Source: a virus (lineage: Duplodnaviria; Caudoviricetes). From it: DNA of 64,000 nucleotides. The notes beneath the pieces are model-generated. The model made no database searches. It saw nothing but the letters and a program-made list of their open reading frames with translations, and had not been told where the DNA came from. The stretch is from positions 64,001-128,000 of IMG/VR virus record IMGVR_UViG_3300012983_000033. One strand, given 5' to 3'. Position numbers and translations under genes: made by a program. The stretch's first letter is position 1; each line of letters begins with the position of its first letter. Below are positions 18,114 to 51,150 of the stretch, in pieces.

Positions 18114-19679
18114 TTATTTTGCAATTTTGAAATTATATGATGAAGTTAAAACAACATTATTAGCAATTTCACCAATGGTCTTATCACGATCGCCGCTATT
18201 ATATGCCTAAACAATGTTTTCTTTTGTTGAATATTTTATATTAATGCGTTTTGGCTCATTTACCTAAATATAATAATATATATTTTCTAAAATTTGTGAA
18301 GCTAAAACGAAGGTTTTTCCTGCAACAAAAAATAAAGAGTTTTTGTCGATATTTTGTAGCTCAGACATGTCATCTACTGCTAAATACATAAGACTACTTG
18401 CAAAAGCACTAAAAGCCTATTCTATTTGTGGAATCATATTTAATAAATTTTTTCTACGAGAAAGAAAGCTGTTCATTTGTGGTGTAGGATTATATTTCGC
18501 ACCAGATACAGCGGTTCCTTTTGATGAAATATAATATGGAACGTTAAAACCTAAACTACCATAAAAATTAGTAAGAATTTCTTTAACCTCTGTATTAGGC
18601 AATGTATTGAGCACTGTTTCTAAAGAGGCATTTGCAAAATAAGAAGAAAAATTTGAGTCAATATCTAATGCTGTATTTTTTACCTAAATACCAAAATTAT
18701 TTAATAATATATCTCTGTGAGGCTTTGCTTTGTCTTCTCCAACATGAAGTCCACCGAGCCAACGAATACTTTTTCCAATCTCTTCTATTCCAAGAAACTG
18801 TGCTAAATAATACATAGCTTTTATTTCTCCTAATAAACCAGTAATATCATGCTGATTATATCCTACAAAAAACGCAGTGGGATCTGCAACCAAAATATGA
18901 CCAATTATCTTTTTTATGTATGGGTCGCCTCCACAAACTTTGATTATTTCTTGGGCAACTCTAGAATTCATTTTTTGTAATTCTTTTTTATCTATATTTC
19001 GTGCCTCTGAAGGAGTTAAAAAATTTGTCTCTTCCTGCCAACTAAAATGAGCGTTTGCGTCCTACCCATTTTCTGAAACAGATAAAGTAAAAGCCTATGG
19101 TTTTATTTTTTGCTCTTTTGAAGCTTTTTTGTTGTAACTTTTTATTGCTTTATTTAAGGCTATTTTTTGTGCCTTAGATAATTCAGAAATTTTAAAAAAA
19201 CTTTTTCCATTAGAACTTTTCTATATTTTTGAAGCAGAGAATCTTATTTGTTTATTTCCTCCATGAAACTAATTAAGAACAATATTCATTACTTTTCCAT
19301 AGTCTACAACATCCATTTCTTTACAAGCATCCAATACTTCATCTTCTAAAAGGGCAGTAAAACTACTTACATCATAGCCTTTCATCTATTCATATCCTAT
19401 AAAGGCTTGTTTTAAGGCAGAGCCGGACAATGGACAAACCGCTTTTTCATATTGTTTTATTTTTTCATTTAATTCTTGTATTGAACCGACTTTTAATCTT
19501 GCTAAAATATTTTTTTCAATATTCTCGGCTCTTTTGATATCTTGTAGTATCTTCTAAATCCCCACTTGTTTTAAATTACTTAGCGTGGTTATCTTCTCTT
19601 GGCTTGAAAAAGATTGGGTAATATCATAATATCCAGTTAAACTCATTAAGTTAGTTGGAGACTATATTATTGCACTCAT
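18114..19679 (-). CDS. 521-aa protein with 11 in-frame TAG codons; possible PD-(D/E)xK-like nuclease fold
   Basis: GGAGGTG RBS, ATG 19679, no TAA/TGA until 18114; joins ORF-track fragments 18684..18971 and 18417..18614; H.DILL...GI(TAG)VKN motif. Confidence 0.8.
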
Positions 19680-19745
19680 TATCCCACCTCCATAAATTTC
19701 TTCTTATAATAAGTAAAAAAAAGAGTGGAAAACTCCACTCTTTCG

Positions 19746-22015: not shown

Positions 22016-22073
22016 AGTTTATTCTCCTTTCTCAATTTCTTTTATTATATCAAAATTTTAAGATAAAATCAAA

Positions 22074-23005: not shown

Positions 23006-23950
23006 TTACATCACCTCTTCTTTCATAATATACTTACTGCTATCTAACAGCAAGTCTTCAATTTCTAATGTTTGTAACTTTGTATATGGAATTCTGATTA
23101 ATGGTATCTTGTTTTCTCTACACCACTCATTTTTTATGGAATCTCGCCTTTGATTTTCTTTAAGGCTTTCAATACCTCCATTGTCAAACTAACGTGTGGA
23201 CTCAAAATGCTAAATTCCATCAAATTCAATTAAATAATCAATTGTATTGTTCTTTAAAATTGCAAAGTCAAAAGCATAGAATTTACCACTTTCACTTTTT
23301 AAGTTTTCAAAAGTTGCTTGTCTGCAAAAACTGATATTAAATTCGGATAGTAACTTTGCTATGATTGCTTCTCCCTTTGAATTCATACAACCACAAGAAG
23401 CAACCTTACCACGTTTTAAATCAGAAGTAGATACTATATGTTTTCCACCACAATCGCATTCGCAAAACCAATATCGAATTCCCTTAGGACGAAGAAAAGT
23501 CTCTTCTTTAGTAGCCCTTCGTATTACGGTTAATTTAGTAAATTTTTGTCCTATTAAATCTTCATTATGCTCTTCATTCCATTTTTCTATGGTTGCACTT
23601 GCTCTATCTAAATTATAACATCCACAAGATTTAGTATTACCAGACTTCAAACTTTTTGTTGTTACTGAAATAATATTTCCGCAATCGCACTAACAAAGCC
23701 ATCTAATTCCATTCTTATCTTTTTTAGTTAAATCTCTTTTTAATACGACAAGTCTACCAAACCGCATATTCTTTTCTATTCCAGATTTAGAACAAGGGCA
23801 CTATCCGCCGTTTTTCTTTTCTGGAACTATATTTGCAGTTTTATAAGTTCGTTCCAATCCACATTTTTGACATCTTGCCTACCAAGTGCCTTTACCTATA
23901 TAATCTTCAATAAGATAATCTCCATATTGAAGTCCCTTAAAATTTTTCAT
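23006..23950 (-). CDS. Homing-endonuclease-like protein (C.CDCG repeats plus C-terminal Vsr/DUF559-like nuclease), 5 in-frame TAG
   Basis: WLC(TAG)CDCGN, WFCECDCGG, SKGE, FDF, IEFDGI(TAG)H, LIRIPY motifs; ends TAA. Confidence 0.85.
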
Positions 23951-24040
23951 TTTACTCACCTCTACTTGTAAGTAAAAAACTCAATCATAGAATCCACGTT
24001 TTTAGGAATAAGTCTTGCGACACCGACCAACATTGTAAAT

Positions 24041-28890: not shown

Positions 28891-29029
28891 ATATATGACT
28901 ACTGAATTGGCAGCAGTCTTATATGTATATTTTTCTGCACTCTGTGCGTAAGTTGGAAACGGGCACTATATACAAACCTTTCAGAGTCTCCACATCCACT
29001 GACCAACGAAGCAGTATGTTTCATCGACT

Positions 29030-30542: not shown

Positions 30543-31271
30543 TCAAATTTTTTCCCATTCTTCATCAGTATATGTTTTTATAATATTTTTTGTGCTTGGT
30601 AAATTTTCTGCTTTACACCATTTTCTAACAGCATTATCAGAAACTCCATATTTTTTACCAATATTAACAAAACTTTCAGTTCTAATTAAAGTCTTTAAAA
30701 TCTCTCTATCCGGACGAGCGCATTTTCTCTGTTCTTTTCCAGAACATTTAACACACTTTGTTGCATTTGAAGAAATTTCAACACCACATTCAATACAAAA
30801 ATTCTTTTTTGGTGCTTCATATACAGCATTTTTACTTCCAAAAGTAGGTAATTGTCTATCACAATTTGGACATACCCAACGCAAATTTTCTACCCTATCA
30901 TCTTTATTGTTTCCATTAATGTGATCTAAAGTTAGTGACAAGGGTTGCCCATTCCAAAAAGGTTCTTGTCCACAAATGGCGCAAACATATGGAGTATATT
31001 CTTGTTTAAGATACCAACGACGCAAAACTGCCTGAGATACTGTTGAATTTTCTACAAAAATTGTCTCTGGAGTCCACACTTGATTAGAATTAGTTTTACC
31101 TAATTCTTCCAATGAAATATTTAAAATTTTGCATCTATCTTTTATCGGTTTTGTTGCTGTACTATTTTTTGAATATCCTATTTTTTGAGAAATTTCTGAT
31201 AAAGAATTGCTATTTTTAACTATCGCAATAAATTCTTCATCTGAAAGTAAATCAACCTTTGTCATAATCAT
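30543..31271 (-). CDS. HNH endonuclease within tRNA array
   Basis: CAICG...LDHINGNNKDDRVENLRWVCPNCD, Zn ribbon, C-terminal HTH. Confidence 0.88.
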   Translation of the reverse strand: MIMTKVDLLSDEEFIAIVKNSNSLSEISQKIGYSKNSTATKPIKDRCKILNISLEELGKTNSNQVWTPETIFVENSTVSQAVLRRWYLKQEYTPYVCAICGQEPFWNGQPLSLTLDHINGNNKDDRVENLRWVCPNCDRQLPTFGSKNAVYEAPKKNFCIECGVEISSNATKCVKCSGKEQRKCARPDREILKTLIRTESFVNIGKKYGVSDNAVRKWCKAENLPSTKNIIKTYTDEEWEKI

Positions 31272-31353: not shown

Positions 31354-31443
31354 TGGCAGCCCCGTAGGGATTCGAACCCTAACTAACGCCCTCAGCAGGC
31401 CACAGATTTAGAGTCTGCTGTGCTACCATTACACCACGGGGCA
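31354..31443 (-). tRNA. Amber suppressor tRNA(CTA), Gln-like body, long variable arm
   Basis: GCAGA-CT CTA AA-TCTGT; D-arm identical to that of tRNA-Gln; T-arm TAGGG-TTCGAAT-CCCTA; G73-CCA. Confidence 0.9.
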
Positions 31444-31791: not shown

Positions 31792-32259
31792 TTACATCGC
31801 CTTAAGAAGTATTGATATTTCTTCTACAATTTGGACTTCAGGAATAAAACACCACTTAAGAAGTTCCGAAACACTGATTATAAGAAAAGGAATACTGGTT
31901 ATGAATAAAGTTGCTCCAACGATTGCACTTGCATAACCAAAGAATGTCAGATCCCAATCTTCTCCGTTATAATAACTAATATCTTTTGTCCAATAAAGTG
32001 TTTGAGAAACACCCTTTTCTTTTACTTTTTCAAGTTTTTTAAAGTCTTTAAATATGGCGATAGCACCAACTACACAACCGATCATTATAAGACTCCAACA
32101 AACAACACTAATAACTTCTTCAATGATATTAAAAGTTATATATCGTTCACATAATTCCATAACATAAGGAACTACATTTTCCTGTGTCCAGTCAATTGCA
32201 ATACCCATTTTGTCGCAAATTAACTCAAAAACTTCTTTAAACTGCTCACTAAAAGTCAT
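31792..32259 (-). CDS. Membrane protein
   Basis: Start MTFSEQ; GIAIDWT..NV.PY motif, two TMs. Confidence 0.7.
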   Translation of the reverse strand: MTFSEQFKEVFELICDKMGIAIDWTQENVVPYVMELCERYITFNIIEEVISVVCWSLIMIGCVVGAIAIFKDFKKLEKVKEKGVSQTLYWTKDISYYNGEDWDLTFFGYASAIVGATLFITSIPFLIISVSELLKWCFIPEVQIVEEISILLKAM

Positions 32260-32289
32260 ATACACTTTCCTTTCAAAATTATTTATAGT

Positions 32290-32933
32290 TTGCACCTTGA
32301 AAATACATACTAGACGAACCTTCGTTCTACTGTCAACATTCTTCAACCATATTCAGTCACAGAGGAGATGACTGTGAGCTAAAGGGAGCTACCCTTTAAC
32401 TTTTTCACCCCAGAATTGATCGTTGCACCGAAGTGCGCTGGACCTAAATCAATTCATAAAACTCTGACGGGATTGCTTACCCGCACCTTTCACCTACAAT
32501 TCACATAATTTTATAGTCTTTTACTATAACTATTAATTAATTAATCCTAACATTCGTATTGCTACGCCTTCGGCTACTTGGAGTTGCTTGCATATGTTAT
32601 ACACGAATTTCTTCGCTTCACGGCATTACGGATTATTGGTATTTCACAAGGTTTGATACAGTCACCAGCTAAACCCTAACTTGGATTCGGCACTTGCTAT
32701 TAACAAATGCTTCTATTGTTCCGTCCATACGCATACTACCTTTGATTGCAAATGCTGAAGTGCTATACCTTGGTTTGGGAGTTCATCCTCTTCCACTAAA
32801 TTATCACTAATTTAATGACAGTCCAGAATTGTAAAGTATCCTTTATTTCTTCTGCTGACCTTCCGGTATACCTCAGCACAGTCTGCGAAACTGTGTTTGC
32901 ACTGAGTTGTTAGTATATATTTTCAAGGTGCAA
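32290..32933 (-). ncRNA. Large structured RNA, ROOL-like
   Basis: ~645 nt without a credible ORF, closed by a 23-bp terminal helix, many internal hairpins, own promoter at ~33012-33041; family name by recall only. Confidence 0.6.
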
Positions 32934-33044
32934 CTTGCCAGATAACGAACTGGCTCGCCCTTTACATTCTTAGCCAATGGGTTTGAAGTTTTTTCCTTAA
33001 CTTTCTATAAATATTATAGAATATTTTTGATTAAAAATCAAATT

Positions 33045-33210: not shown

Positions 33211-33290
33211 TGGCACGCCCAGAGAGATTCGAACTCCCGACTAACCGTGGTTCGTAGCCACGTGCTCTGTCCAGACTGAGCTATGAGCGT
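33211..33290 (-). tRNA. tRNA-Arg(ACG)
   Basis: CGTGG-CT ACG AA-CCACG. Confidence 0.9.
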
Positions 33291-33297
33291 ATATAAT

Positions 33298-33371
33298 TGG
33301 AGCAAATAACGGGATTCGAACCCGTGCTGTCTGCATGGCAAGCAGAAGTACTACCACTATACTATATCTGC
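33298..33371 (-). tRNA. tRNA-Gly(GCC)
   Basis: TCTGC-TT GCC AT-GCAGA. Confidence 0.9.
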
Positions 33372-33379
33372 ATATAATT

Positions 33380-33451
33380 TTATACTACTGGGAATTTAAC
33401 CACAGCTCTCCTCCTTTAAAGGGAGGCGAATTTTCGCTATTCGATAGTATA
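33380..33451 (-). tRNA. Degenerate tRNA-like cloverleaf, anticodon TTA
   Basis: TATACTA/TAGTATA acceptor stem, GAAT/ATTC D-stem, CCTCC-CT TTA AA-GGAGG; aberrant T-arm, no CCA. Confidence 0.5.
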
Positions 33452-33459
33452 AAAGCATA

Positions 33460-34350
33460 TGGTAAGTAAAAACGAAAACCTGAGAATACAGTTTTCAAAT
33501 TGCTACGCCTTAATGACCTTATGTGTTAGTCACTTTTCCACTTCCTTTTGGGAAGTAGCGCTCATGCCTGCGTTTTTACATCCCCAGCACAAGGGACGAG
33601 GTCCGCTAATCTACCTTTAACGAGTACTTACTCGATTATCACTCCACTATCAACCTTGCGGGCTGTTCGCGGTTGCTACACCACTATAGATTCGTTTCAA
33701 TCAAATACAAGATGCTTGTGACACCTTATATCCCGTATTGCTTACCACTACGGGCTTAAGACACTTTTCGTTACTCGCAATAACAGATTTTTACTTTTAA
33801 CATACCTTCCATTTAATAGTATTGCTCTACCTACTGAGCTACCCGCGTATGTATGGGAGATAGGTGCTTACTATCTCCGCGTGAATAATAATTGGCACGC
33901 GGGGTGGGACTCGAACCCACGCTAAGTTAATTTGACAGAAGACAGACTGTTATCGTAGTTTCCATACCTTTTGAGCACAGAAATGCTACCCGCCTTCAAC
34001 ACTTTCCTTGGCTTCGTACTCGTGTTTCCTAAAACCACCGTAGCAGTAATAGATGGAAGCCGCCCTTGATTGCTAATCTCGAACTTATCTTCCTGCGGTT
34101 TACCATACCTTATTCTATCCTTTTTGCGTTGAAGCCAGTCCCTTGCGAGAACGGTCGTTCTCAGACATTTGTCCATTGATCGACATTTTCACTTCATCAA
34201 GAATAAGTTAAGACATAGGGGATATATCCGTAGTGGTCTTTTCAACCAACTACTGGTCCCGGCGCGCAGTGCTTGGGGTACCACTTTCGTGGCGGAAGTT
34301 TGTCAGTATCTTCCTTTCGTTCCCTTACGGGAAGTTATCAGCCAAGCCTG
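33460..34350 (-). ncRNA. Large structured RNA, GOLLD-like, with central permuted tRNA halves
   Basis: ~890 nt rich in GNRA/GCAA-type hairpins, own promoter at ~34410-34439; tRNA 3' half at 33893-33920 and 5' half at 33822-33848; ends approximate. Confidence 0.6.
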
Positions 34351-50097: not shown

Positions 50098-51150
50098 ATG
50101 GTATATATCGGAATCTCATTATTAATTGGAATTATATCAATAGGAATATCATTCTATATACGATATAAAGTAGAAGAAGATAAATTTATTAAAAAATTAG
50201 AATTAGAATAGACAAGAAAAATATAGAATAAATATAAAGAATTTTAGATGGAATTCGAGAAATATGAAAATTTATATAGAGATGCATTAAATAAAAAATA
50301 GAAAGAAATTGATATTTTAATAGAAACTTATGATAATGAAGAATTAAGATTAAAAAATGAATTTTTATCTAAATCTATTCTCCATAATTAGAAGATAGAT
50401 GAAATAAAAGAAAAATATAATAAAGCAGAATATGAATTAAAAATAATTGAAGAAAGAAAACAACATACACAAGAAGTATTAAATACTTATTATGACAGTG
50501 AGAAATAGAGAATTGAAGATAAAATTCAAAATATTACTGCAAGTTGTATTGAGGAAATGATGCAACAAGTTGGAATAAAATCTGTAGAATGTGAAGAACA
50601 AATTAAGAAATTCCAAGATGTATTATTATCATATCAACAACGACAAGCCGCAGTAAACGAAGCAATTATGCGCGAGCGTCAATTACAAGAACAATCAGAA
50701 TTTTATACAATCAACCTCTCACAATCAGAAATTGATGACTTGCTTATGATTAAAGAATTATCGCCTCGATTTAATAATCGAGAATTATTAAATAAAATTA
50801 TATATGAAAGTTATATAAAACGTCCTCTCCAAGAAATGATAAAAAGAGTATTGAACGGGCGCAGTCCCAGTGGTATATATAAAATTACTCGAAAATCTAC
50901 GGGTGAAATTTATATAGGTCGTGCAGTTGCTGTCGATAAACGCTGGACAGAGCACGTAAAAATGGCTTTCTCTATTGGTTCGATTGCTCATTCAACTCTT
51001 CATACAATTATGGAAAAAGAAGGAGTTTGGAATTTTACTTTTGAATTACTTGAAGAAGTTCCAAAAGACCAATTAAATGAGCGAGAAAAATACTATATTG
51101 ATTTTTATGATAGTAAAAATTTTGGACTCAATCAAAAAAATGGTGGATAA
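50098..51150 (+). CDS. TM-anchored coiled-coil protein with C-terminal GIY-YIG domain, six in-frame TAG
   Basis: AAGGAG RBS, ATG 50098; TAG at 50209, 50224, 50245, 50299, 50389, 50506; SGIYKIT...YIG...RW..H...E.YYI...GLN. Confidence 0.8.

Follow-up and report, generated by a model that had tools for sequence, protein, structure and literature searches.

A full-length ROOL RNA gene beside a GOLLD RNA in the tRNA array of a phage

The window analysed here is a 64,000-nucleotide stretch (bases 64001-128000) of an IMG/VR phage record that is complete, is 139,671 bp long and has direct terminal repeats. It carries 30-31 tRNA genes between 28817 and 38541 (an array of about 10 kb), all on the minus strand. 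A gene for the large structured RNA ROOL lies within this array on the same strand, and a second large RNA, GOLLD, is found upstream of it. Read in the direction of transcription, the main features of the locus are:

33477-33998, minus strand: GOLLD RNA (RF02032), conserved 3' domain, with its own promoter at 34438-34410 (minus strand)
33211-33451, minus strand: tRNA-Arg(ACG), tRNA-Gly(GCC) and a tRNA-like gene (UUA), between GOLLD and the ROOL promoter
33013-33041, minus strand: sigma-70-like promoter TTGATT-N17-TATAAT, whose -10 hexamer ends 80 nt before helix P1
32934-33005, minus strand: predicted 5' leader of about 70 nt, with its start placed from the -10 hexamer and a 5-bp hairpin (GCCAG...CUGGC) immediately before P1
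32290-32933, minus strand: ROOL RNA gene, 644 nt when helix P1 is counted in full, with the covariance-model match at 32296-32930
32911-32933, minus strand: 5' arm of P1, a 23-nt inverted repeat
32290-32312, minus strand: 3' arm of P1, the other half of the inverted repeat, with 16 positions paired in the Rfam model
31792-32262, minus strand: downstream ORF of 156 aa (phrog_23747), starting 27 nt after ROOL behind a GGAAAG ribosome-binding site
31354-31443, minus strand: CUA suppressor tRNA, 847 nt from the 3' end of ROOL

A preliminary description of this DNA had assigned the element to ROOL from its length, its tRNA context and motifs, and had proposed a search with the Rfam ROOL model. The assignment is right. 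The Rfam covariance model RF03087 matches with 318.6 bits (E 1.7e-72), well over the cut-off of 99.1, and the match covers the whole model (1-574/574). This score falls within the 110-406 bits spanned by 45 other phage ROOLs, which were gathered via the ROOL core motif. Blocks that are invariant in an alignment of 40 ROOLs (e.g. GAUA, AAUA, UAGC, GUGAAA...GGUA..CAAUCC and GAA) are all kept. Membership of 32290-32933 (minus strand) in the ROOL family is practically certain. The element had also been described as approximately 645 nt without a credible ORF, and the ORF list of the stretch bears this out; its 3' edge is touched only by a plus-strand ORF of 53 aa and by the downstream gene when this is extended to a TTG start.

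ROOL is present as a single copy in the genome. The nearest sampled ROOL is 66% identical, and a BLASTN search of the element against GenBank phages gave no match; judging from these sequence comparisons, close relatives appear to be absent from cultured-phage records. The RNA is an additional member of a known family and is, in itself, ordinary.

The gene is closed by helix P1. Its 23-nt arms are 96% complementary, and the sole mismatch, C32306 x A32917 on the plus strand, becomes a G-U wobble on the minus strand; P1 is therefore perfect only as minus-strand RNA, where it has 22 Watson-Crick pairs and one G-U. Both the 23-bp closing helix with its strand-specific wobble and the choice of the minus strand as the transcribed one, which had been proposed earlier, are correct. 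The arm sequence does not occur again within the 64-kb window. Two more imperfect inverted repeats lie outside P1, at 32209-32235/32985-33011 (74%) and 32272-32288/33005-33021 (82% complementary). These outer repeats, which bracket ROOL, could lengthen the closing helix in a precursor or could be chance matches.

The 644-nt minus-strand RNA folds to -189.2 kcal/mol, compared with -152.4 +/- 5.8 kcal/mol in 20 dinucleotide shuffles (z = -6.39), and none of the 20 is as good as the native sequence. When the Rfam consensus structure is projected onto this ROOL, 135 of 158 pairs are canonical; most of the 23 non-canonical pairs fall where the consensus is non-canonical too. Covariation was measured after this ROOL and 39 phage ROOLs had been aligned with MAFFT (40 sequences). 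In this alignment, 70.5% of the cells are paired, compared with 52.1% in shuffles (none of 500 is as high). Covariation scores 0.502; shuffles give 0.194, and shifting the partners by 1-3 columns gives 0.095-0.212. Compared with each of the six nearest ROOLs (54-66% identity), double substitutions that keep pairing number 31-51 and those that break it number 4-11; this compensatory excess shows that the lineage of this copy is itself structurally constrained. Fold and covariation agree with the earlier reading of a structured RNA with many internal hairpins.

ROOLs that have been solved by cryo-EM are protein-free hollow dihedral cages; the env-120 ROOL (PDB 9MDS) and the E. faecalis ROOL (9J3T) are octamers, while the L. 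salivarius ROOL (9J6Y) is a hexamer. The quaternary contacts of these cages were placed on the present sequence via the Rfam consensus alignment and the published text, not from solved-structure coordinates. They are listed below together with the variable parts of the RNA:

32690-32710, minus strand: optional hairpin in its long form, after the invariant AAUAG (by alignment to the model)
32664-32667, minus strand: L8 loop UGGU, a kissing partner (bridge B4 of Kretsch et al.)
32637-32640, minus strand: junction J6/8 ACCA, the partner of L8
32498-32568, minus strand: variable linker, 71 nt and A/U-rich, which aligns to an unconserved loop of the model
32416-32452, minus strand: UUCG-loop expansion hairpin, lineage-specific, 36 nt compared with 4 in the model
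32387-32391, minus strand: L18 loop UAGCU (numbering of Kretsch; L15 in that of Wang), which contains the self-complementary AGCU; placed by alignment

The complementarity between L8 and J6/8 was described as a pseudoknot by Weinberg 2017 (PMC5737381) and as the intermolecular bridge B4 by Kretsch 2025; the kissing interaction is intermolecular (bioRxiv 10.1101/2024.12.08.627333). Across the 40 ROOLs, the four pairs concerned are 79.4% paired with a covariation score of 0.318, compared with 0.145 in shuffles (0/500), and one of them splits into UA (19) and CG (15). L18 (L15) is a symmetric kissing loop that joins the half-shells, with 4 bp in the E. faecalis ROOL, according to the published structures. 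In the present RNA, L18 is mapped by alignment only; it reads UAGCU and not the commoner UCGCU, so that the palindrome is 4 nt long (AGCU) compared with 2 nt in most relatives.

The optional hairpin has a 7-bp stem and a 7-nt loop, compared with 4 bp and 5 nt in the consensus. From its position after AAUAG, we infer that it corresponds to the apical stem called P7 by Kretsch and P10 by Wang. This stem is 'ultrashort' in the hexameric ROOL of L. salivarius. The linker at 32498-32568 forms two small hairpins, one of which has a GCAA tetraloop, and is unconserved even in comparison with the nearest ROOL; in env-120, the linker is reported to be disordered and to face the interior of the cage.

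This ROOL shares with the solved members of RF03087 the P1-closed multi-junction architecture, the invariant motifs and the L8/J6/8 complementarity; the loop aligned to L18 would likewise be self-complementary. With known ROOLs it shares the setting in a phage tRNA array and the tRNA strand. It is similar in length to the env-120 ROOL (635-644 nt compared with 659 nt). Compared with the consensus, P1 is extended to 23 bp, a UUCG-capped hairpin is added and the optional hairpin is long; in addition, a GOLLD lies nearby. Like its solved relatives, the RNA would self-assemble without protein into a hollow dihedral homo-oligomer. Formation of such a protein-free cage is likely, because the L8/J6/8 complementarity and a putative palindromic L18 are kept. 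Since the optional apical hairpin is long, an octamer may be slightly favoured over a hexamer.

The promoter that had been proposed for ROOL, TTGATT-N17-TATAAT, does lie at 33041-33013 (minus strand). In all, the window has 13 exact copies, 12 of them in this orientation. If up to one mismatch is permitted, the window contains 19 sites compared with 2.5 expected, and none of 100 shuffles reaches 19. Copies lie immediately upstream of the RNA ligase gene, the AAA-ATPase gene, tRNA blocks, GOLLD and ROOL; the ROOL and GOLLD copies have extended sequence in common. At least 12 near-identical promoters are found between 3297 and 39803 of the window (minus strand; e.g. at 22044, 25055, 26898, 30518, 33013, 34410, 34757, 36584 and 39775), with an extended consensus of about AAAATTTGATTTTT...AAAATTTTGATATAAT. 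This promoter family, upstream of both genes and tRNA blocks, probably defines one temporal class of transcription units.

Transcription would begin about 70 nt before P1. No terminator-like site was found after ROOL on the minus strand; the only candidate on that strand lay in a tRNA T-arm. The transcript would probably continue into the 156-aa ORF and the tRNA-Lys that follows it. Because a terminator is lacking and this readthrough is probable, the mature ROOL may be freed from a longer transcript by processing. Promoters of this kind are found at other loci: for 11 of 38 other phage ROOLs, a strong sigma-70-like site lies no more than 150 nt upstream, and for several of these it is 83-99 nt away, as in the present case. 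Many of the remaining ROOLs begin 19-21 nt past a tRNA. The predicted leader contains a start-stop AUG UAA (32962-32967, minus strand) approximately 25 nt after AAGGA; this is probably due to chance.

The association of ROOL with tRNAs is general and already published. Thirty-eight ROOL loci contain 273 tRNAs, every one of them on the strand of ROOL, and 29 of the 38 ROOLs have a tRNA within 500 nt. The tRNA-like gene with a UUA anticodon (33380-33451, minus strand) scores 46.6 bits with the Rfam tRNA model and was missed by ARAGORN. A ROOL-bearing relative, G086, has a tRNA(UUA) approximately 350 nt upstream of its ROOL (L105:13662-13734, plus strand). Both ROOL-bearing relatives of the lineage have a 117-118-nt match to the tRNA model 9 nt past the 3' end of ROOL (L105:14744-14861 and L242:15919-16035), which represents a tRNA with a large insert.

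Other small RNA genes are found in these arrays. A weak match to drum RNA (RF02958) lies in the gap between tRNA-Gln and tRNA-Trp at 28922-29029 (minus strand; 31 bits, cut-off 43). In the relative L242, drum RNA is matched with 48.3 bits, which exceeds the cut-off, about 500 nt after ROOL (L242:16415-16513, plus strand). Five ROOL loci (L006, L026, L029, L043 and L044) have a tmRNA gene in the same tRNA array, between a few hundred nucleotides and approximately 1 kb away from ROOL.

The array also contains an HNH endonuclease gene (30543-31271, minus strand; phrog_10822, E 1e-39), located between tRNA-Asn and the suppressor tRNA; this endonuclease might contribute to mosaicism of the array. 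Close outside the array are genes for an Rnl1-type RNA ligase, a Pnk-like kinase, phosphoesterases, PhoH and ClpP. Several long frames are open only if 4-11 in-frame TAGs are read through (18114-19703, 50098-51150, 23006-23980 and 46635-47330). As read from the sequence, these frames would fit a partial recoding of TAG in which the CUA suppressor tRNA reads the codon. A survey of recoded phages had been suggested for a link with ROOL; suppressor tRNAs were found in only 5 of 38 ROOL loci, and a tie between ROOL and recoding is therefore rejected.

GOLLD is matched by RF02032 over the whole model (1-416/416; E 1.8e-40) with 149.1 bits, 0.9 bit short of the cut-off of 150; GOLLDs of lineage relatives score 101-189 bits. 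Its 3' end lies 543 nt upstream of the 5' end of ROOL. The preliminary description had placed two large RNAs within 2 kb of each other and near the suppressor tRNA, and this arrangement stands. A weak match to YrlA, a Y RNA-like RNA, is found in the variable linker of GOLLD (33799-33945, minus strand; 35 bits, cut-off 69). Like ROOL, GOLLD is a large ornate RNA of phage tRNA arrays and forms a protein-free hollow cage (env-38 14-mer, PDB 9MEE). In this phage the two RNAs adjoin and have the same type of promoter. Their sequences and folds are unrelated, and 32290-32933 gives no GOLLD match.

Co-occurrence of the two RNAs was surveyed from both sides. None of 80 viral records selected by the ROOL core motif gave a GOLLD (of 50 tested for ROOL, 45 were confirmed). 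In these first searches, 21-30 first-look candidates were scored per large record. A repeat search of 23 large ROOL-motif records (19 complete), in which nearly all candidates were scored, again gave no GOLLD (0/23). Conversely, ROOL was found in none of 10 records sharing the motif of this GOLLD and in none of 26 GOLLD records overall.

Relatives of the AAA-ATPase encoded in the array provide a third comparison. Among 50 such relatives, 16 have GOLLD, one (G086) has ROOL and none has both. GOLLD is absent within 21 kb around the G086 ROOL; the region between the ATPase and the first tRNA, where a divergent GOLLD was considered, contains two small ORFs. The relative L242, a 117-kb metagenome contig with a ROOL of 322 bits, has no GOLLD within 10 kb of ROOL. 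A metagenome scan with the AAA-ATPase gave just two close relatives (99% and 75% identity), both of them fragments (1.5 and 2.8 kb) that lack the ROOL/GOLLD flank. The 156-aa protein was tried as a marker for close relatives and discarded, as it gave one weak match only.

No report of ROOL and GOLLD in one phage was found in the literature searched. The lytic phage K resembles the present case in having two abundant long non-coding RNAs near its tRNA genes, lnc001 and lnc002; one of the pair has its own early promoter (PMC9241854). The authors likened them to ROOL and GOLLD by location and abundance only and claimed no homology (PMC9241854). As the resemblance is positional only, phage K is rejected as a precedent. 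A tandem of ROOL and GOLLD, each with its own copy of the same promoter, is apparently uncommon and unreported. As both families are rare, finding no record with the two among about 100 is no proof that they exclude each other.

Taken as a whole, the locus is very probably best explained as a full-length ROOL gene within a phage tRNA array; its RNA would likely self-assemble into a cage, and a trans-acting cage is the reading favoured here. Such a cage might act in trans during infection, on the side of tRNAs and translation, and might enclose or sequester tRNAs, ribosomal particles or a host nuclease. A role related to translation or tRNAs is suggested tentatively for ROOL, and one common to ROOL and GOLLD may be envisaged.

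A possible, although doubtful, explanation for the tandem is that ROOL and GOLLD are functional analogues and that this phage carries a redundant pair. Both RNAs make hollow cages, they share a genomic context, and the other sampled records hold one or the other but never both. However, this missing co-occurrence is statistically not strong for families so rare, and both copies in this phage are intact, each with its own promoter.

It is quite unlikely that ROOL is a passenger, moved intact among phage tRNA arrays by recombination with little or no benefit to the phage, and that its adjacency to GOLLD is an accident of mosaicism. Both RNAs are patchy even among relatives: in the AAA-ATPase set GOLLD is found in 16/50 and ROOL in 1/50, and L242 has ROOL only. 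The low identity (66%) to the nearest ROOL and the HNH endonuclease gene inside the array fit the same idea. So do reports that the RNAs are dispensable in tested strains; ROOL is non-essential in L. salivarius, and GOLLD is dispensable for phage production in L. brevis. A passenger would not, however, readily account for a full-length, high-scoring RNA whose own branch shows compensatory changes in strong excess, which is served by its own copy of the phage promoter and which keeps the predicted assembly contacts.

The short distance between ROOL and the next ORF (27 nt, with a GGAAAG ribosome-binding site and no intervening terminator) is what would be expected if ROOL acted in cis, as a structured 5' leader or a processing or stability scaffold for the ORF and tRNA-Lys, and not as a free RNA. 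This is highly unlikely: the downstream neighbour of ROOL varies by phage (tRNAs, assorted ORFs or nothing), the single weak relative of the 156-aa protein lies in a record without ROOL, and solved ROOLs are autonomous assemblies.

Finally, a miniature transposable element with 23-bp terminal inverted repeats, which the long inverted repeat might suggest, can be dismissed: the element is single-copy with arms at only two sites in the window, its flanks (...TTATAG / CTTGCC...) have no target-site duplication, and the arms are helix P1 of the covariance-model match with a lone mismatch that is a strand-specific G-U. The preliminary description had named the lack of an Rfam match, the lack of covariation and target-site duplications as observations that would speak against ROOL; the Rfam match and covariation were both found, and no duplication was seen.

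With the trans-acting ROOL cage as the preferred reading, the neighbouring GOLLD permits a further suggestion. ROOL and GOLLD may not be interchangeable; both cages could be made for different, cooperating jobs in the take-over of translation by the phage, although we consider this unlikely. The setting of such cooperation would be the array of about 31 tRNAs with its amber suppressor, the Rnl1/Pnk RNA repair functions, and the adjacent but separate copies of the same promoter. An extreme and speculative version is that the ROOL cage, at about 28 nm, fits within the GOLLD cage, for which a cavity of up to about 32 nm has been reported. If the two cages do cooperate, this phage would provide a natural system in which cargo and function are genetically separable.

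The annotation of ROOL alone is routine; the unusual part is its pairing with GOLLD. To our knowledge, no natural RNAs other than ROOL and GOLLD form closed cages unaided, and the common genomic context of the two has suggested similar roles. The same genome offers handles on tRNA biology in its suppressor tRNA and RNA-repair enzymes. One complete phage in which both RNAs are intact and have their own promoters is a compact system in which redundancy, complementarity and interaction of the cages could be told apart.
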